From a virus: a stretch of DNA of 29,457 nucleotides. Under the pieces are notes generated by a model. That model did not search any database and was not told where the DNA came from. It saw nothing but the letters and a program-made list of their open reading frames with translations. Location: the UHGV virus genome UHGV-1280367, one strand, 5' to 3'. Every line of letters starts with the position of its first letter. Position 1 is the stretch's first letter. A program made the translations under genes and the position numbers. This document shows positions 4,431-20,497 of the stretch, in pieces.

Positions 4431-5077
4431 GCTGCACGCTCCCGCCCCTGGTTGTCTGTTGGTGACAGCGGAGTATTGCTGAATGCATTTGTTAATCTGG
4501 CAATATCCAACGCGTATCCAGGGTGTAGTTGCACTGCCGGGTCTTCGCACTGATTACCCCAAACATCGAAACCATGAGACGACTGGCGGGCGAACAGTTC
4601 AATGCGAGAAACATCGCCTAACAATTGCACAAGTTTTTCACGAACGATATCTGGTTTTCTTGAATGCTCAAGCCGCGGTGCGGTAAATGACTGAACGATC
4701 CCTGCATTAATGCGCGTAGGTAGTTTTCCCTTTACCGCAAACAGGCAATCTTCACTATTGGCGCGAGTCATGTGCCCCATACCCATAACCAGTTTATCTG
4801 GTTGTCGACTACCACATTTTATCCACGTGAAGCCCTTCATGGTCATCAGACGGAATCCCCAGGATTCAACAACTTTTAGTGCTTCGAGTGGTTGTGTTGG
4901 CACCCACCACATGGCCAACAGACAGTTTTCATCGGCCAAATCCCACACAGGAAGGCGGCAGATATCCAGCACACTCATAACCGGATATTTAAAACCGGCA
5001 CCGCGATTACCATCTGCGGCTTTGTCCCGGTATACCCAGGGTGGATCTGCATAGATTAGTGTGTATTTCTTAGTCAT
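4427..5077 (-). CDS. MT-A70 family N6-adenine DNA methyltransferase
   Basis: 216 aa. N-terminal YADPPW catalytic motif and overall pattern typical of phage orphan Dam-like methylases. Confidence 0.75.
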   Translation of the reverse strand: MTKKYTLIYADPPWVYRDKAADGNRGAGFKYPVMSVLDICRLPVWDLADENCLLAMWWVPTQPLEALKVVESWGFRLMTMKGFTWIKCGSRQPDKLVMGMGHMTRANSEDCLFAVKGKLPTRINAGIVQSFTAPRLEHSRKPDIVREKLVQLLGDVSRIELFARQSSHGFDVWGNQCEDPAVQLHPGYALDIARLTNAFSNTPLSPTDNQGRERAA

Positions 5078-5369
5078 AAACCACCCCGCAACATCCTATG
5101 CCGCTATAGTCGCCACGGCGAAGGCCGTTACCTTTTGTGATACATTGGTCCCTGCGAACCGCGATCCTTGCACGCTCAACATCACCAGAAGCAACATCCA
5201 TACACTGAAGCCAAAGGTGGGCGGCAATGCGGAACTGCCCTTTTTTCTCTCTTTCAATCGCGCGTTTTTCGATCTCTATCGCCGCAGGAGTAACGGCAAC
5301 AACCTTTGAAGGGCTGCGCATTGAAACCTTGTTCATGTGATATTTTTCAAGTCGGCTTAACTTTCTCAC
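5070..5369 (-). CDS. Hypothetical protein
   Basis: ORF overlapping the methyltransferase start by 8 nt; start is uncertain (GTG at 5369 or ATG at 5336). No recognisable motif. Confidence 0.35.
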   Translation of the reverse strand: MRKLSRLEKYHMNKVSMRSPSKVVAVTPAAIEIEKRAIEREKKGQFRIAAHLWLQCMDVASGDVERARIAVRRDQCITKGNGLRRGDYSGIGCCGVVYD

Positions 5370-5478: not shown

Positions 5479-5727
5479 TCATGCCGCGTTGCTCACGGGA
5501 CGATATACACGTTGCTGAACAGGAGGTTTTTTACCCTGGAACTCTGCCGGGCTTGCTGCCTGACGTTCATCAAGCCAACGCTCAACTTCATCACGGTTCC
5601 ATGCGCAGCGTTTATCGGTGATATACCAGCGTTTAGGAAATTCCCCTGCGCGCTCCATACGGTCGATAGTGCTCCATGACAGTGGCACCACCGCCATGAG
5701 TTCCTTCTTACCTAATGCACCTTTCAT
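5479..5727 (-). CDS. AlpA-family DNA-binding protein (putative excisionase or regulator)
   Basis: 82 aa; the segment LSWSTIDRMERAGEFPKRWYITDKRCAWNRDEVERWL matches the AlpA/Xis-like helix-turn-helix pattern. Confidence 0.65.
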   Translation of the reverse strand: MKGALGKKELMAVVPLSWSTIDRMERAGEFPKRWYITDKRCAWNRDEVERWLDERQAASPAEFQGKKPPVQQRVYRPVSNAA

Positions 5728-8312: not shown

Positions 8313-8897
8313 TTATTGTTTGCTTTTTTCGTTCTGGTTGATGACAAATTCAATGTAACTTTCGATCTTTGCTTTCTCGGTTTCGGGTAACAATGCGTAG
8401 CGCGAGCGGTCATAGTTGATGGTCGCAGGGTCGTGCGGGTGAATCAGTAATTCATAGCCGTGACGCCCGAATGCGGATGCCACATTCTCCAGGGTGGAAA
8501 TGGAAACGCTAACCTCATTGTTTAACAGGCGGCTGATTGTCACCTGGGCGACGCCGGATGCGCGGTGAAGTTTTCCCTGTGTTGAAAGGTCGCGGCTTTC
8601 GCTCATCCAGCGTTCCAGGTTGTGAGCCGCCAGCTGACCAATGTCGCTTGGGCCGACAGGCTGAAAACCTTCCTGAGAAAGCGAGCGATCGATATCAAGC
8701 CAGTTACGGGGTTTATTGGCGGCAGCTTCAATTTTTCGCGCAACCTGGTCGCCGATAACCTTCTTGCCAAGAGCCCAGCGGTTTACCAGATTTGCCTGAG
8801 TTCCAAGTTTTTCTGCCATCCGCGTCTGAACACCATTGAATTCACGGTCGATCAAGTCGTTGAGATTTTGCCTGCGGACGTCCTGGATACTTTTCAT
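8313..8897 (-). CDS. Phage repressor (CI-like), two helix-turn-helix regions, no S24 peptidase domain
   Basis: 194 aa. XRE-type HTH pattern near the N-terminus and a second HTH-like segment around residues 110-150. Divergent from the Cro-like gene across an operator-rich intergenic region. Confidence 0.65.
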   Translation of the reverse strand: MKSIQDVRRQNLNDLIDREFNGVQTRMAEKLGTQANLVNRWALGKKVIGDQVARKIEAAANKPRNWLDIDRSLSQEGFQPVGPSDIGQLAAHNLERWMSESRDLSTQGKLHRASGVAQVTISRLLNNEVSVSISTLENVASAFGRHGYELLIHPHDPATINYDRSRYALLPETEKAKIESYIEFVINQNEKSKQ

Positions 8898-9282: not shown

Positions 9283-9304
9283 TATCCAGCCACAACCCTC
9301 TGTA

Positions 9305-9328
9305 GACCGCCATCCGGCGGTCTTTTCA
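9305..9328 (+). terminator. Rho-independent terminator downstream of the cro-like gene (tR1-like position)
   Basis: Hairpin gaccgcc-atcc-ggcggtc followed by ttttcat. Confidence 0.6.
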
Positions 9329-9337
9329 TATCTATTC

Positions 9338-14676: not shown

Positions 14677-15007
14677 ATCAGCAGCAGAGCGCAAAGCCGC
14701 TCAGAGAGCCAGACAAGCTGCATCTGGTGTACGTAAGCTGGAGATTGTGCTTGATGCTCAGGAAATTGAAATGCTGGAGCGTAACTGTGCCACACGTCGC
14801 CCCGGGCGTGCGCCTTACGAATTTGGTGAGTATATAGCGTTACTGATCCGCCAGGATGATGCACGCGTGCGCGGGCGTATAAAATCGATCAGCAGAAAAC
14901 GTTGCGGTAAGTGCGGCGAGAGAGTTCCTGTGAATTCATGCCCGTGTAATGGTGACTCGCAATGCTGGGTAACCAAAGGCTGGCATGAAACGAAATTAAT
15001 AGTGTGA
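14669..15007 (+). CDS. Putative ribbon-helix-helix-like DNA-binding protein with C-terminal Cys-rich zinc finger; candidate late-gene regulator
   Basis: N-terminal ERKAAQRARQAASGVRKLEIVLDAQEIEMLER resembles RHH regulators; C-terminal CGKCGER...CPCNGDSQC cysteine cluster. ATG at 14669 (the track starts at a TTG at 14666). Confidence 0.35.
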   Translation: MAKSAAERKAAQRARQAASGVRKLEIVLDAQEIEMLERNCATRRPGRAPYEFGEYIALLIRQDDARVRGRIKSISRKRCGKCGERVPVNSCPCNGDSQCWVTKGWHETKLIV

Positions 15008-15024
15008 CATGTCACGAAGGTGTT

Positions 15025-15312: not shown

Positions 15313-15908
15313 TGATGCCTGCTGAACCTAAAACCTATAAACGCAAATCAACGCAATTTAAGCCACTAACAGCAATGCAGGAGGCTTATTGCCAGTCATA
15401 CATCAAAACGCCTGAAAACCAGACTCAGGCAGCGATTAACGCAGGATTCTCCCCAAATACAGCGGCAGTTAAAGCCAGTGTCATGATGCGCGATGAACGC
15501 ATTCAAAAACGGATTGCCGAGCTGATGGAAGAGCGCAACAAACGAATGCGCGTCAGTGCTGATTACGTTCTCATGCGCCTGGTGGAGATCGACCAGATGG
15601 ACGTGATCGACATCCTCAACGACGATGGGAGCCTTAAGCCAATCCGCGAGTGGCCGAAAATCTGGCGCACTACGCTTAGCGGCTTTGATCTGTCATCGAC
15701 CATCATGAACATGAACGAGGATTCGATAGAGACAATCCTCAAAAAAATTAAATGGCCTGACAAGGTGAAGAACCTCGAACTGATTGGTAAGCACGTCGAC
15801 GTCAACGCATTCAAAGAACGCCTGGATGTTAATGTGAATGTGACAATTGCTGATCGCATAGCAGCAGCCAGGAAGCGACTCAAAGAACGTCAGGATGGTA
15901 ATCAGTGA
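15312..15908 (+). CDS. terS: Terminase small subunit
   Basis: From the ATG at 15312 (MMPAEPKT...): QEAYCQSYIKTPENQTQAAINAGFSPNTAAVKASVMMRDERIQKRI is a typical small-terminase N-terminal DNA-binding region. The track's longer N-terminal extension is low-complexity. Confidence 0.7.
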   Translation: MMPAEPKTYKRKSTQFKPLTAMQEAYCQSYIKTPENQTQAAINAGFSPNTAAVKASVMMRDERIQKRIAELMEERNKRMRVSADYVLMRLVEIDQMDVIDILNDDGSLKPIREWPKIWRTTLSGFDLSSTIMNMNEDSIETILKKIKWPDKVKNLELIGKHVDVNAFKERLDVNVNVTIADRIAAARKRLKERQDGNQ

Positions 15909-17380
15909 CAGATACAGCGTTATCTCCTGAAGAGCAGTTGATCGAGGATATTGCAGGGTTCACTCACGATCCGCTTGGCTATGCTCTCTATGCGTTCCCG
16001 TGGGGGGAAGAGGGGACTGAACTGGCACATGCTACCGGCCCACGTCAATGGCAGGCTGATGCGTTCCGAGAGATACGTGATCACCTGCAGAATCCAGAGA
16101 CGCGCTATCAGCCGCTTATGCTGGCACGCGCTTCTGGTCACGGTATTGGTAAATCCGCATTTATCTCAATGCTGATCAACTGGGGCATGTCCACTTGCGA
16201 GGATTGTAAGGTCGTGGTGACCGCCAACACCGACAACCAGCTACGAACGAAGACCTGGCCGGAAATTATCAAGTGGTCAAACCTTGCTATCACGAAAGAC
16301 TGGTTTACCTGTACCGCTACCGCGATGTACAGCAATGACCCTGGGCACGACAAGCGGTGGCGAGCTGACGCAATCCCCTGGTCTGAGCACAACACTGAGG
16401 CATTCGCCGGACTACACAACGAGCGCAAACGCATCATCGTGGTATTCGATGAAGCGTCGAATATTGCCGATCTTGTGTGGGAGGTAGCAGAGGGTGCGCT
16501 GACGGACGAAGACACCGAAATCATCTGGGTGGCGTTCGGGAACCCGACGCGTAACACCGGGCGTTTCCGTGAATGTTTCCGCAAGTACAAACACCGCTGG
16601 AAGTGTGCGCAGATTGACAGCCGGACGGTGGAAGGCACTAACAAACAGCAGTTGCAGAAATGGGTTGATGACTACGGGGAAGACAGCGACTTCGTTAAAA
16701 TCCGTGTGCGCGGCATATTCCCTGATGCATCTGAATTGCAGTTTATCCCTACCGGTCTTACTGATGAGGCAATGAAACGGGTGGTAACCGCTGCGCAGGT
16801 TGCACATGCTCCGGTGATAATCGGCGTTGACCCGGCATACTCAGGCGTTGATGACGCGGTGATATACCTGCGGCAGGGGCTGCACAGTAAGGTGCTGTGG
16901 ACTGGCAACAAGACTACTGACGATCTGATTATGGCGAAGCGTATCGCTGACTTTGAAGACCAGTACCAGGCTGACGCAGTGTTCATCGACTTCGGTTACG
17001 GAACTGGTCTGAAGTCAATCGGTGACGGCTGGGGTCGTACATGGCAACTTGTTCCGTTCGGTGGCGCGTCTACTGACCCGCAGATGCTCAATAAGCGCGG
17101 GGAGATGTTCAACTCATGCAAGACATGGCTGAGGCTGGGCGGCATGCTGGATGACCAGGAAACAGCGGACGACCTGTCGGCGGCAGAGTACAAAGTTCGA
17201 GTGGACGGTAAAATCGTTATCGAACCGAAGGAAGATATCAAGGAGCGGCTTGGGCGCTCGCCGGGTAAAGGCGATGCGCTACTGCTGACGTTTGCTTTCC
17301 CTGTGTCGAAGCGTCTGCGAATTCCCGGGCAGCAGAACCAGCAAGGCAAGGCCATCACAGATTACGATCCCTATGATTAA
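15905..17380 (+). CDS. terL: Terminase large subunit
   Basis: 491 aa. Walker A-like ARASGHGIGKS and Walker B-like IIVVFDEAS, with a nuclease-like C-terminal half. GTG start overlaps the terS stop. Confidence 0.85.
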   Translation: MTDTALSPEEQLIEDIAGFTHDPLGYALYAFPWGEEGTELAHATGPRQWQADAFREIRDHLQNPETRYQPLMLARASGHGIGKSAFISMLINWGMSTCEDCKVVVTANTDNQLRTKTWPEIIKWSNLAITKDWFTCTATAMYSNDPGHDKRWRADAIPWSEHNTEAFAGLHNERKRIIVVFDEASNIADLVWEVAEGALTDEDTEIIWVAFGNPTRNTGRFRECFRKYKHRWKCAQIDSRTVEGTNKQQLQKWVDDYGEDSDFVKIRVRGIFPDASELQFIPTGLTDEAMKRVVTAAQVAHAPVIIGVDPAYSGVDDAVIYLRQGLHSKVLWTGNKTTDDLIMAKRIADFEDQYQADAVFIDFGYGTGLKSIGDGWGRTWQLVPFGGASTDPQMLNKRGEMFNSCKTWLRLGGMLDDQETADDLSAAEYKVRVDGKIVIEPKEDIKERLGRSPGKGDALLLTFAFPVSKRLRIPGQQNQQGKAITDYDPYD

Positions 17381-17430
17381 TCCGCTGGTGGGGATAATGT
17401 CGTTGATATCCTCTGATGAGGATAAAACAA

Positions 17431-17450
17431 AGCCAGCTCATCGGCTGGCT
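17431..17450. terminator. Hairpin after terL and downstream of the reverse cargo gene, possible bidirectional terminator
   Basis: agccagc-tcatcg-gctggct; on the minus strand it is followed by a T-rich tract (ttgtttta). A second hairpin lies at 17407..17424. Confidence 0.4.
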
Positions 17451-17470
17451 GTTTGTGACATGTCACAGAG

Positions 17471-17893
17471 CTAGAAAATAATTTCATCAAATGCAGCATT
17501 TATTGCCTTTGCTTCGCTAATGGCGCCTTGTTTATCGACAATAGCTTTTTTACCAAGCACCTCGGCAAGGCACTGTAGCTTCATGTTGTATAAGTGTTCG
17601 CTCATGTAATCATTATCACTTTTTGCTTTAGCGCAAACAGAGCGAGAAATATCAAACACATCGCCTTTTTCCATTTCAGAACGTTGTGCTGTTATCCAGT
17701 CATGGAACGTAACGCTAGTACCATGGTCTTCTCTAAGAGTTAACCCGGTCAGCCCCTCACTCTGAATTACTTCGTAATGCATTTCATTACCAGCAAAAAC
17801 GCCATAAAAAATGCAGTCTTCAGCCTGAACGATACGAGAATATTTTAATGGCCATTCATTTAGATACTTAGCCAACATATCAATTGTCTTCAT
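17471..17893 (-). CDS. Reverse-oriented cargo gene of unknown function (140 aa)
   Basis: The only minus-strand gene inside the late region. Visibly more AT-rich than its flanks. Ribosome-binding site AAGGTGAG ahead of the ATG. No motif I recognise; soluble, no transmembrane segment. Confidence 0.6.
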   Translation of the reverse strand: MKTIDMLAKYLNEWPLKYSRIVQAEDCIFYGVFAGNEMHYEVIQSEGLTGLTLREDHGTSVTFHDWITAQRSEMEKGDVFDISRSVCAKAKSDNDYMSEHLYNMKLQCLAEVLGKKAIVDKQGAISEAKAINAAFDEIIF

Positions 17894-17904
17894 AATCTCA
17901 CCTT

Positions 17905-17930
17905 AAAAAAATGCCCGGCGAACCGGGCGA
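17905..17930 (-). terminator. Intrinsic terminator (minus strand) between the tRNA and the cargo gene
   Basis: Minus-strand reading gcccgg-ttcg-ccgggc followed by ttttttt, then the cargo-gene ribosome-binding site and ATG. Confidence 0.65.
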
Positions 17931-18092
17931 ACTGGAAGCAATGAGTTATGCCTTCCGTGGCTGTACTGGTTTACAGCATGAAGTCATCGCAATGGCGTCC
18001 TGCTGTAAAAAGGGCGGTGATAGTCCTTCAAGGGAAACCATCACCGCCAAGCCCCCTGGAACTTCTGGCATCACGGTCCTTAGGCGTGATTC

Positions 18093-18169
18093 TGGCGTGG
18101 CATGCAGGATTCGAACCTGCGACCAACCGCTTAGAAGGCGGTTGCTCTGTCCAGCTGAGCTAATGCCAC
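18093..18169 (-). tRNA. tRNA-Arg, anticodon UCU
   Basis: Minus-strand sequence GTGGCATTAGCTCAGCTGGACAGAGCAACCGCCTTCTAAGCGGTTGGTCGCAGGTTCGAATCCTGCATGCCACGCCA folds by eye into a cloverleaf: 7-bp acceptor stem, D arm GCTC/GAGC, anticodon loop CTTCTAA, T arm GCAGG-TTCGAAT-CCTGC, encoded CCA. Close to E. coli argU as I recall it. Confidence 0.85.
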
Positions 18170-18491
18170 AACGCTGAGAGCACTTAGCCTGTTAAGGCGC
18201 CACACTTTGTCGCGGCTCCATAAATGCTCTCATCGTTGTACCCTCGTCTCTTCCGAGGTGTCACACCGAATCGCCTGGATGGTGAATCCCCGTGCGCGGA
18301 ATAAAACCGCTCGACTTGCACATTCCGGCTACCTGGTTCGTTTGCCCGAGCAAGGGAGGGTGCCCCTTAAACGTATCCAGACCGCTATCGGCGCATGTGC
18401 CATACGCCGTACTGCTCAAAATAAAAGCTCACTCCACCTGTTCAATTTAACGACAAGCCAGTCAGGTTAGTAACCGGAATGAACTCTTTGG

Positions 18492-18506
18492 TTACCTGAA
18501 AGGTAA
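18492..18506. promoter_or_regulatory. Operator-like palindrome TTACC-tgaaa-GGTAA upstream of the portal region
   Basis: Exact copy of the recurring motif, about 90 bp before the small ORF at 18597. Confidence 0.4.
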
Positions 18507-18596
18507 TAATTCGTGCGTTAAATGTCAACTGTCTACGATAAATAAATCATATGTGGTTAAATTGGTAATAATTTAATTGCGTACGGAGTCATTGAT

Positions 18597-18817: not shown

Positions 18818-20497
18818 ATGGCGGAAACAACTAAAGAGCGATTGAACAAACAGTTCGCACAACTTGAAAGCGAGCGTCAGTCGTTCGAGCCGCACTGGCG
18901 CGAGTTGAGTGATTACATCAACCCGCGTGGTTCCCGCTTTCTGACTTCTGAGGTCAACCGTAACGATCGACGCAATACACGCATTATTGATTCGACCGGG
19001 ACTATGGCGGCGCGCACTCTCGCCAGCGGCATGATGTCAGGCATCACAAGCCCCGCGCGTCCGTGGTTTCGCCTGGCTACGCCAGATCCTGAAATGATGG
19101 ATTATGGCCCTGTTAAGTTGTGGCTTGAGGCGGTGCAGAACCGCATGAACGATATGTTCAATAAGTCGAATCTCTATCAGTCGCTGCCGCAGTTATACGG
19201 AAGCCTCGGCACATACAGCACTGGTGCAATGGCAGTGCTGGAGGATGACGAGGACATCATTCGCACAATGCCATTCCCGATAGGAAGTTACTACCTGGCT
19301 AACTCACCTCGTGGCAGTGTGGACACCTGTTTTCGCAAGTTCTCTATGACTGTTCGTCAGCTTGTTCAGGAGTTCGGGCTAAATAACGTCAGCGAATCCG
19401 TAAAAAGCATGTGGGAAAGCGGCACCTACGAGAAGTGGATTGAAGTGATGCATTCGGTTTACCCGAACATTGACCGCGATACATCGAAGCTGGATAGCAA
19501 GAACAAGCCATTCAAATCGGTTTATTACGAGGTTGGTGGCGATAACGACAAGTTGTTGCGTGAGTCCGGATTCGATGAGTTTCCAATTATGGCTCCGCGC
19601 TGGGAAGTTAACGGCGAAGATGTTTATGGATCATCATGCCCGGGTATGCTGGCGCTTGGACCTGTTAAGGCATTGCAGCTTCTCCAGAAGCGCAAGTCGC
19701 AGTTGATTGATAAAGCCACCAATCCGCCGATGGTTGCTCCGACTTCCCTCAAGAATCAGCGCGCCTCCCTTCTTCCTGGCGACATCACGTATATCGATCA
19801 GATTACTGGTCATGATGGTTTCAGGCCTGCTTATCTGGTTAACCCCAGTACAGCAGATTTGGTGGCAGACATTCAGGACACTCGTCAAATCATTAACAGC
19901 GCCTACTTTGTCGATCTGTTCATGATGTTGCAGAACATCAATACCCGCTCGATGCCTGTTGAAGCGGTGATCGAAATGAAAGAAGAAAAACTTCTGATGT
20001 TGGGGCCGGTTCTGGAGCGTCTGAACGACGAATGTCTTAATCCTCTCATTGACCGCGCTTTCTCGATGATGGTGCGTAAAAACATGCTGCCGCCACCGCC
20101 TGACGCGATGGAAGGTATGCCCCTGAAGGTCGAATACATTTCCGTCATGGCTCAGGCGCAGAAGTCTATCGGCCTGTCCAGTCTGGCGTCTACGGTCAAC
20201 TTCATTGGTCAACTTGCGCAAGCGAAACCAGAAGCTCTCGACAAACTCAACGTTGATCAGGCGATCGATGCATTCGCTGATATGTCCGGAGTGTCTCCAA
20301 CCGTCATTGTTCCGCAGGAACAGGTTGAGCAGGCTCGCCAGCAACGGGCACAGCAACAACAGCAGCAACAAATGATGGAGATGGGGATGGCGGCGGCACA
20401 GGGTGCCAAGACGCTAAGCGAAGCTAAAACTTCGGATCCGAGTGTTTTGTCAGCTATGGCGAATGCAGTTAGTGGTCAGGGTGGGCAATCACAATGA
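18818..20497 (+). CDS. Portal (head-to-tail connector) protein, T7 gp8-like
   Basis: 559 aa. The C-terminal Gln-rich tail QARQQRAQQQQQQQMMEMGMAAAQGA parallels the T7 gp8 C-terminus (QKQQKMAQQSMQMGMDNGAAALAQG) as I recall it. Size and position fit. Confidence 0.75.
   Translation: MAETTKERLNKQFAQLESERQSFEPHWRELSDYINPRGSRFLTSEVNRNDRRNTRIIDSTGTMAARTLASGMMSGITSPARPWFRLATPDPEMMDYGPVKLWLEAVQNRMNDMFNKSNLYQSLPQLYGSLGTYSTGAMAVLEDDEDIIRTMPFPIGSYYLANSPRGSVDTCFRKFSMTVRQLVQEFGLNNVSESVKSMWESGTYEKWIEVMHSVYPNIDRDTSKLDSKNKPFKSVYYEVGGDNDKLLRESGFDEFPIMAPRWEVNGEDVYGSSCPGMLALGPVKALQLLQKRKSQLIDKATNPPMVAPTSLKNQRASLLPGDITYIDQITGHDGFRPAYLVNPSTADLVADIQDTRQIINSAYFVDLFMMLQNINTRSMPVEAVIEMKEEKLLMLGPVLERLNDECLNPLIDRAFSMMVRKNMLPPPPDAMEGMPLKVEYISVMAQAQKSIGLSSLASTVNFIGQLAQAKPEALDKLNVDQAIDAFADMSGVSPTVIVPQEQVEQARQQRAQQQQQQQMMEMGMAAAQGAKTLSEAKTSDPSVLSAMANAVSGQGGQSQ

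Follow-up and report, generated by a model that had tools for sequence, protein, structure and literature searches.

A putative terminator valve ahead of a promoterless, exchangeable accessory gene in prophages of the phiV10/epsilon15 type

INTRODUCTION

The GenBank record of Salmonella phage epsilon15 (AY150271.2) labels a stem-loop at 2559-2582 as a rho-independent terminator situated 12 nucleotides (nt) upstream of a coding sequence (CDS), a label that is a prediction and not the outcome of an experiment. An orthologue of this stem-loop, here called T2, occupies positions 17905 to 17928 on the minus strand of UHGV virus genome UHGV-1280367, a stretch of 29,457 nt that is referred to as the window. 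The window is a prophage of the phiV10/epsilon15 type (Uetakevirus), and T2 is not a new element, its homologue having already been predicted as a terminator in epsilon15. T2 lies within a minus-strand insert of ~1.2 kb, located between the genes for the large terminase (terL) and the portal protein, that holds a tRNA-Arg(UCU) and one small gene encoding 140 amino acids (aa). Along the minus strand, the order is an operator-controlled promoter, a leader RNA, the tRNA, a hairpin (T1), two further hairpins (H3 and H4), T2, a Shine-Dalgarno (SD) sequence, and the open reading frame (ORF), with an additional short hairpin between the tRNA and T1. The epsilon15 element (GCCCAC-TTCG-GTGGGC, A, T7) has the same trailer between H3 and T2, an SD and ORF directly after it, and an annotated repressor site upstream, but the epsilon15 unit is missing the tRNA, the greater part of the leader RNA, and half of T1, and its ORF is of the PF13876 type rather than the 140-aa protein.

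Several better-described systems resemble this locus in part. In the dicF-dicB region of the Escherichia coli Qin prophage, an RNA gene reportedly ends in an intrinsic terminator within a repressor-controlled early operon, and dicB is said to lie behind the dicF terminator and to be expressed from transcripts that run past that end. T1 resembles the DicF terminator (GGCGGT...ACCGCCCTTTTT), but the products of the window are a tRNA and RNAs without an Rfam family (with no DicF match from Rfam in the window), and the downstream gene is a swappable slot. Morons are reported to be accessory genes placed between conserved genes, the classical moron bringing its own promoter. The window likewise has a variable gene on the opposite strand between terL and the portal gene, with its own downstream terminator (T3), but its cassette has no promoter of its own, and at this site only the class II cassettes described below have one. 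Transfer RNAs are cotranscribed with protein genes in the tufB operon of E. coli and between tR' and stx in Stx phages; in those systems, as predicted here, tRNA and mRNA derive from one promoter, and Stx phages also have a terminator in the path. In Stx phages, however, the terminator precedes the tRNAs and is overridden by Q, whereas the window places its terminators after the tRNA and before the ORF and has no known Q. The T2 unit also resembles internal operon terminators that set expression ratios. In the lambda N/nut and Q, HK022 put (PMC9378689), and AlpA (PMC9371919) systems, genes lie behind intrinsic terminators in a repressor-controlled early unit, and the window unit shares with them a structured RNA near the transcript start; it differs in having no N-like arginine-rich (ARM) protein, no similarity to put, and a boxA-like UGCUCU that is paired.

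On balance, we consider it somewhat probable that T2 operates as a passive terminator valve ahead of a promoterless slot into which unrelated accessory genes are swapped, an arrangement that is tidy but a fairly ordinary phage design.

RESULTS

Anatomy and conservation of T2

T2 was recognized from its sequence, a consensus scan, its energy, its conservation, and the epsilon15 annotation. On the minus strand, it comprises a 5' arm (GCCCGG, 17928-17923), a TTCG loop (17922-17919), and a 3' arm (CCGGGC, 17918-17913), followed by a single A (17912) and a run of seven T residues (17911-17905). Its folding energy is -11.2 kcal/mol, compared with -11.5 kcal/mol for T3, the terminator at the end of the unit. 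The SD, AAGGTGAG (17904-17897), comes next and is followed by ATT (17896-17894) and the ATG (17893-17891) of the 140-aa ORF, so placed that SD and start codon together span 17891..17904 of the minus strand; in the centroid fold of the read-through RNA, the SD is unpaired. The initial annotation had described a stem-loop plus U7 lying 5 nt upstream of the ribosome-binding site of this gene. The hairpin, the U7 run, the SD, and the AUG are all present, but the distances need correcting: the stem is set off from the U-run by a single A and from the SD by 8 nt, and no nucleotide intervenes between U-run and SD. The immediate adjacency of terminator and ribosome-binding site stands.

The consensus scan detected 4 terminator-like sites, including T2, in 2.2 kb, as opposed to 2.2 +/- 1.3 in shuffled sequences, and because this number does not exceed the shuffled expectation, the T2 pattern by itself proves nothing. 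What establishes the element is its conservation. Relatives were gathered by scanning viral contigs for exact patterns anchored in the spacer and the tRNA, to which GenBank phages and one metagenome scan (with a leader-RNA motif as the query) were added, yielding a set of 192 loci. A scan of genome contigs with the 3' half of the tRNA matched almost solely unrelated tRNAs. Over the 1.2-kb stretch around T2, the window is 90-98% identical to HEMP4, PAS61, ZX5, phiV10, and TL-2011b, all or most of which are Uetakeviruses and kin of epsilon15; the mEpimmI "Nus-dependent non-lambdoid" phages proved to be unrelated siphoviruses.

A perfect 6-bp stem is retained in 181 of the 192 loci, with a G.U pair in 2 and a mismatch in the remaining 9. 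The two loop-proximal pairs vary: at pair 5, 165 loci have G-C and 22 have A-T; at pair 6, 168 have G-C and 23 have C-G; and the two switch jointly to give GCCCAC/GTGGGC, a compensatory double change present in 22-23 loci that may trace to few events. The U-run is 7 nt long in 165 loci and ranges from 5 to 10 nt, never falling below 5. The conservation of the hairpin, its compensatory changes, and the maintenance of the U-run indicate that T2 is a selected RNA hairpin with terminator anatomy. Having a G+C-rich stem-loop, a U-tract 3' of the stem, and pairing that is kept in evolution, T2 has the properties expected of an intrinsic terminator, and from these we infer that it is a genuine one. 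A bidirectional function was rejected, the plus strand having no U-run after the hairpin.

The T2 loop is 5 nt long in the Klebsiella lineage and is inverted (to CGAA) in a single locus, L050. The T1 loop is likewise inverted in locus L068, and in both cases the stem is the same as in the other loci. Such inverted loops are a signature of palindrome-mediated inversion at the level of DNA.

Expression of the 140-aa gene depends on transcripts that cross T2

Scans and manual reading of the minus strand revealed no sigma-70-like promoter anywhere from T1 to the ATG, including the 11-nt gap between the U-run and the start codon, which bears out the view in the initial annotation that no promoter fits there. 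Candidate hidden promoters (TTTACA/TGACTT, TTGCGA/CCAGTA, TTGCTT, and an extended -10 within the SD) were each examined and found neither acceptable nor conserved, and the same applies to sigma-28 and sigma-E promoters and to all -35/-10 combinations tried by hand over this interval. A sigma-54-like GGCAT-N-TTGC was rejected because its GG/GC spacing is wrong by one position and lacks conservation. Transcripts initiating upstream of T2 must cross it, and initiation downstream would leave no room for the SD.

The gene itself (17471..17893, minus strand) is real and under purifying selection, with a dN/dS of 0.12-0.29 against diverged homologues (dS up to ~1). In PAS61, the 33 nt directly 5' of T2, including H4, are deleted and the ORF is kept, so H4 is dispensable. 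The lack of a recognizable promoter between T1 and the ATG, the dispensability of these 33 nt, the selection on the ORF, and the recurrence of the terminator-SD junction before unrelated ORFs together imply that transcripts of the gene must cross the hairpin. The closest credible promoter precedes the tRNA (18535-18506), and we infer, with good support from these observations, that the 140-aa gene depends on read-through from there. The dependence on read-through that had been proposed for this gene is thus well supported, the proposed coupling to tRNA transcription receives support as well, and the earlier interpretation as a whole is supported in part.

The product belongs to PHROG 4846 and has 80 homologues, all of them unnamed hypothetical proteins and all those from named organisms in Enterobacteriaceae. 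It has no Pfam or PADLOC match, and its AlphaFold2 model, which is moderately confident (pLDDT 76), returned no PDB fold match with Foldseek. The proteins found at the same position in relatives suggest an accessory or counterdefense role.

An exchangeable slot between T2 and T3

In 146 of the 192 loci (class I), the SD AAGGTGAnnnnATG directly follows the U-run and precedes at least 10 unrelated ORFs. These encode the 140-aa protein, PF13876 proteins (phiV10p03 and that of epsilon15), Tad2-like PF11195 proteins, a small membrane protein, and others, and homology among loci breaks immediately downstream of the SD. The cassettes of most class I clusters end, after the stop codon, with the palindrome GTGACATGTCAC (17455..17466 in the window), which marks the 3' junction of the slot, followed by T3 (17424..17450, minus strand), detected by the consensus scan. 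T3 reads AGCCAGC-CGATGA-GCTGGCT and then TTGTTTT, ends the unit, and faces terL; in the phiV10 record, this hairpin is labeled a terminator of the opposite strand. Two copies of the palindrome are present in the window, against an expectation of 0.05, the second at 15004-15015.

Six loci (L016, L057, L077, L103, L111, and L114) have an "empty" slot consisting of T2, the SD, an ATG opening 8 codons (MKYEFDGF*), GTGACATGTCAC, and T3. The palindrome at 15004 precedes an SD and a 70-aa ORF that ends in ..DEFDGL*, and the mini-ORF therefore looks like a deletion remnant of a related gene.

The other 46 loci have no SD directly after the U-run (for example, L006, L008, L013, L034, L044, L045, L060, L088, and L118) and are mostly class II, in which the cassette brings a strong promoter (xTGACx-17-TATAAT) that overlaps either the operator palindrome also found upstream of the tRNA or another upstream region. 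In L070 and L106, a promoterless SD and 81-aa ORF lie 2-3 nt after the U-run of T1, between T1 and H3, and the ORF carries its own hairpin, which merges into the H3 stem. The layout in which an ORF directly follows a hairpin and U-run thus occurs twice in the unit, and this site, on its sequence, represents a second accessory slot behind a terminator-like hairpin.

A repressor-controlled promoter upstream of the tRNA

The candidate promoter of the tRNA and accessory unit, TAGACA-18-AATTAT (18506..18535, minus strand), was located by promoter scans and can be read in an alternative register as TTGACA-17-TACCTT. Its -10/+1 region is overlapped by a perfect palindromic operator, TTACCTGAAAGGTAA (18492..18506), and the TTGAC and operator are invariant across the E. 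coli, Salmonella, and Klebsiella phages. The layout is that of a PL-like promoter in the window (TTGACA-17-AATTAT, 8221-8193), which is also followed by the operator.

The palindrome TTACC-N5-GGTAA occurs 11 times in the window (at 662, 2925, 8179, 8241, 8953, 9001, 11284, 11346, 15280, 15298, and 18492), against an expectation of 0.31. Pairs of sites bracket a helix-turn-helix repressor gene (8313..8897) on both sides, others lie at the int, terS, and tRNA-unit promoters, and the epsilon15 record annotates the site homologous to the tRNA-unit operator as a repressor binding site. The palindrome is probably the operator of the immunity repressor, which would imply many separately repressed promoters, each after a terminator. 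Its presence at the tRNA-unit promoter points to an early, repressor-controlled unit and not to constitutive expression in the lysogen.

A terminator-like hairpin, AGACCGCC-ATCC-GGCGGTCT followed by TTTCAT, lies on the plus strand at 9304-9330, directly after the cro-like gene and before the replication genes, with an operator-like ACCTTAAAGGTAA coming next. The early-right operon, too, thus holds an internal terminator.

The structured leader RNA

Between the promoter and the tRNA lies a leader of ~330 nt containing a conserved core of ~190 nt (18223..18415, minus strand), in which invariant blocks are split by variable hairpins. Its consensus fold has 30 predicted pairs, 8 of which show compensatory changes, and the lengths of its insertions and deletions are not divisible by three. 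A pseudoknot could form through pairing of GCACAU, an invariant loop, with AUGUGC, which is likewise invariant. At an E value of <=5, Rfam offered no family for the leader RNA or the T2 region, the tRNA being the sole true match; a RyhB match (E = 2.2) was rejected as merely the terminator. The reading of UGCUCU(U/C) upstream of the tRNA as an rrn-like boxA was also rejected, this motif pairing with AGAGCA in a covarying helix.

Searches with blastn found the leader RNA in 83 phage records, whose carriers include Uetakeviruses, the lambdoid phages cdtI, Ayreon, 2H10, and mEp390 and several Stx2 phages, and P1, P7, and their relatives. Its terminal helix covaries in the cdtI and P1 copies (CCUCG/CGAGG to CCUGG/CCAGG or CCGG/CCGG). 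In lambdoid phages, it stands at the head of the PL operon. In cdtI, the leader RNA (1984-2170 of locus L305) begins ~45 nt after the PL promoter and is followed, before the first gene, by a T1-like hairpin and UCUUUUU, and no N gene is annotated there. In P1, it lies between trnI and ban (2480-2660 of locus L304), in the C1-controlled ban operon. Judged by position, this distribution is as expected for a put-like cis antiterminator; homology to HK022 put was rejected, the only nhmmer match being 14 nt long and inside nun.

Epsilon15 (1140-1200 of locus L308) and loci L041 and L058 have lost most of the leader RNA, along with, in epsilon15, the tRNA and the 5' half of T1. The two loops brought together by the epsilon15 deletion have UUCCCUUGAUGCU in common, pointing to recombination between the similar leader-hairpin and T1 loops.

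Early-left genes and antitermination factors

The initial annotation had recognized no N-like or Q-like protein. For N this holds, there being no plausible N-like arginine-rich early ORF in the window; for Q-like factors a caveat is needed. The early-left, integrase-proximal (int/xis) region encodes a PerC-like small protein (5070..5369, minus strand) and an AlpA-family protein (5479..5727, minus strand). AlpA-family proteins in such regions are mostly excisionase-like, and by this analogy an excisionase role is the more likely one for the window protein. The AlpA of P. aeruginosa is a processive antiterminator (PMC9371919), and with one homologue that antiterminates, the claim that no Q-like factor is present is not strictly true.

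The tRNA, T1, and the trailer

The tRNA-Arg (anticodon UCU; 18093..18169, minus strand) was called by ARAGORN and scores 71.7 bits with the Rfam tRNA model. T1 (18007..18048, minus strand), detected by the consensus scan, is a 14-bp hairpin of -22 kcal/mol followed by CTTTTT, and its stem covaries between the E. coli lineage and the Salmonella and Klebsiella lineages. The H3 hairpin, UUUACAGCA/UGCUGUAAA (17970..18009, minus strand), was identified from folds and its conserved loop: the loop 16-mer ACGCCATTGCGATGAC (17983-17998) is identical in all three lineages while its flanks vary, and it is retained where the tRNA and T1 are deleted (epsilon15) or where an inserted gene separates them from it. 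The 16-mer is a candidate small RNA (sRNA) seed or protein-binding site. H4 (GGAAGGCA..UGCUUCC; 17934..17956, minus strand) is a weak hairpin of -6.1 kcal/mol. Overall, the read-through RNA folds better than shuffled sequences (z = -3.4), with T1, H3, H4, and T2 forming independent hairpins. The possibility that the trailer loop is antisense to the portal start was rejected: this site, the sole other near-complement in the window, pairs with 3 mismatches, would be expected by chance, and lacks conservation in the Salmonella phage.

Eight loci (L137, from Citrobacter portucalensis, and L139, L141, L144, L148, L151, L155, and L156) have the same tRNA-Arg and T1 and, in place of H3-T2, a long hairpin region (ACTCAACTGAAAGCGCG...CGCGCTTTCAATTGAGT, then GGAGAAAC..). 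The PL operon of cdtI (2350-2520 of locus L305) has this same architecture.

Neighboring genes and deposited annotations

By the layout of annotated relatives, terL (15905..17380) and the portal gene (18818..20497) flank the insert on the plus strand. Two plus-strand ORFs (17911..18177 and 18207..18470) overlie the tRNA and the leader RNA and are probably spurious. PhiV10p04 of phiV10 (2066-2317 of locus L001) is such an ORF, and it and its copies in TL-2011b and EC.W1-9 have been deposited as genes. In SPN9TCW_003 (1079-1585 of locus L004), the deposited start reads through the T2 hairpin, and the likelier start is an ATG 12 nt past the U-run. With respect to annotation, at least one deposited start codon thus crosses the hairpin, and two deposited ORFs overlie the tRNA and the leader RNA.

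DISCUSSION

Under the reading that we favor, T2 would close the noncoding part of an early minus-strand unit composed of a repressor-controlled promoter, the leader, the tRNA, T1, and the trailer. Behind it would lie a promoterless expression slot, made up of a fixed SD, a variable ORF, GTGACATGTCAC, and T3, into which unrelated accessory genes would be swapped by recombination at the conserved flanks, T2-SD on one side and palindrome-T3 on the other. The 140-aa gene would be reached solely by polymerases that initiate ahead of the tRNA and run past both T1 and T2, and a passive, partial read-through of this kind would make T2 a valve that allows much stable RNA product and little accessory-gene mRNA, with output only when the phage repressor is off. 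Several considerations weigh against this proposal. The termination efficiency of T2 and the activity of the upstream promoter are both predictions, and, given its 6-bp stem and the A preceding the U-run, T2 could be stronger or weaker than assumed. T1 and T2 in series, if both are efficient, would leave little passive read-through. About one-quarter of the loci have no SD after T2 and mostly possess a strong operator-bearing promoter, so that read-through alone may be too weak for some cargo, and these promoter-bearing cassettes hint that T2 is not very leaky. In the literature, we found no transcript mapping for phiV10, epsilon15, SPN1S, ZX5, or any other Uetakevirus.

Polymerases might instead be made resistant to terminators, either by a cis action of the leader RNA resembling that of HK022 put RNA or by a phage protein such as that of the AlpA family, in which case T1 and T2 would stop only unmodified polymerases. 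We regard such active read-through as possible but rather unlikely. A covarying RNA of ~190 nt, closely following the promoter and preceding both T1 and T2, is suitably placed for this role; in cdtI it lies ~45 nt past PL, where lambda has nutL-N, and it recurs in the repressor-controlled ban operon of P1. Promoterless SD-ORFs are found behind T1 as well as T2, the put RNA offers a precedent for antitermination by RNA alone (PMC9378689), and AlpA offers one for a protein of the family encoded here (PMC9371919). But the leader RNA has no similarity to the HK022 put region, and its single copy per genome could not serve PR; the P1 copy immediately precedes ban, a long way from the promoter, and no obvious terminator follows it; and epsilon15 and the two other loci that have lost most of the leader RNA keep T2, the SD, and the ORF intact. 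The leader RNA usually accompanies the tRNA, making a tRNA-related or trans-acting role equally possible, and the AlpA-family gene sits in the int/xis region. Tests for an N/nut or put system likewise came out negative, with no N-like protein and no single-stranded boxA or put-homologous RNA in the unit. Classical attenuation, through either a leader peptide or an alternative fold, is scarcely credible. A 13-codon upstream ORF (uORF; ATGACTTCATGC.. at 17987) begins in the H3 loop and, in some lineages (including some Salmonella and Klebsiella phages), crosses T2 in frame with the cargo ATG or overlaps it as ATGA, but it has no good SD, and in 45 of 62 distinct sequences it ends 17 nt short of the hairpin. 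Elsewhere, its frame, length, and stop position vary, such that no conserved leader peptide was found, and neither alifold nor single-sequence folds yielded an alternative antiterminator structure or any complement of the T2 5' arm that could form one. The sequence adjoining T2 on its 5' side is moreover deletable, and the T2 region thus fails the tests for an attenuator or riboswitch on both counts.

T2 could also serve chiefly as the 3' end and stability element of a small noncoding trailer RNA of ~100 nt that extends from H3 through T2 and might be, for instance, an Hfq-type sRNA or a tRNA 3' external spacer released by processing, with the gene behind it incidental. A GC hairpin with a U-tail is the typical 3' module of Hfq-dependent sRNAs, and the trailer ends in a GC hairpin and U7. 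The identity of the H3 loop across three lineages amid variable surroundings, the survival of the H3-T2 block when the tRNA and T1 are deleted or are separated from it by an inserted gene, and the fold z-score noted above all speak for such an RNA; yet no target was found in the window, no Rfam family matches, and read-through would still be needed for the ORF, so that a trailer RNA would complement rather than replace the valve. As the chief role of T2, we consider it unlikely. We give still less credence to a promoter missed by the sigma-70 scans, whether weak, activator dependent, or served by an alternative sigma factor, and located in H4/T2 or in the trailer, which would turn T2 into an efficient insulator or part of a 5' untranslated region (UTR). 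In its favor, TTTACA, matching the -35 consensus at 5 of 6 positions, is conserved at the T1/H3 junction despite differing upstream contexts, and the trailer is more conserved than a simple spacer need be. However, manual reading disclosed no acceptable -10 at 16-18 nt from TTTACA in any lineage, and the H4 region is deleted in PAS61. The constraints on start sites on either side of T2 and the failure of the sigma-54-like motif apply here as well, and the cassettes that do bear promoters display an obvious xTGACx-17-TATAAT and operator.

The larger potential value of this locus resides in the neighboring leader RNA rather than in the terminator. That it belongs to a novel class of RNAs that antiterminate in cis, or exerts some other effect on RNA polymerase, is improbable; if true, it would let polymerases pass T1 and T2 and would explain why promoterless SD-ORFs lie directly behind terminators in repressor-controlled early units. 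The T2-SD and GTGACATGTCAC-T3 flanks, for their part, provide a precise handle for mining accessory and antidefense candidates in ~10% of complete E. coli genomes, and the slot might be considered where reporters are to be inserted and expressed at a low level from phiV10-type reporter phages. The module is carried by 514 complete E. coli genomes. In relatives, the slot holds Tad2-like (anti-Thoeris-type) and other small proteins. If T2 is the passive valve that we propose, this phage family would run a promoterless accessory slot that is metered by a terminator and switched by the repressor through the promoter of a tRNA.

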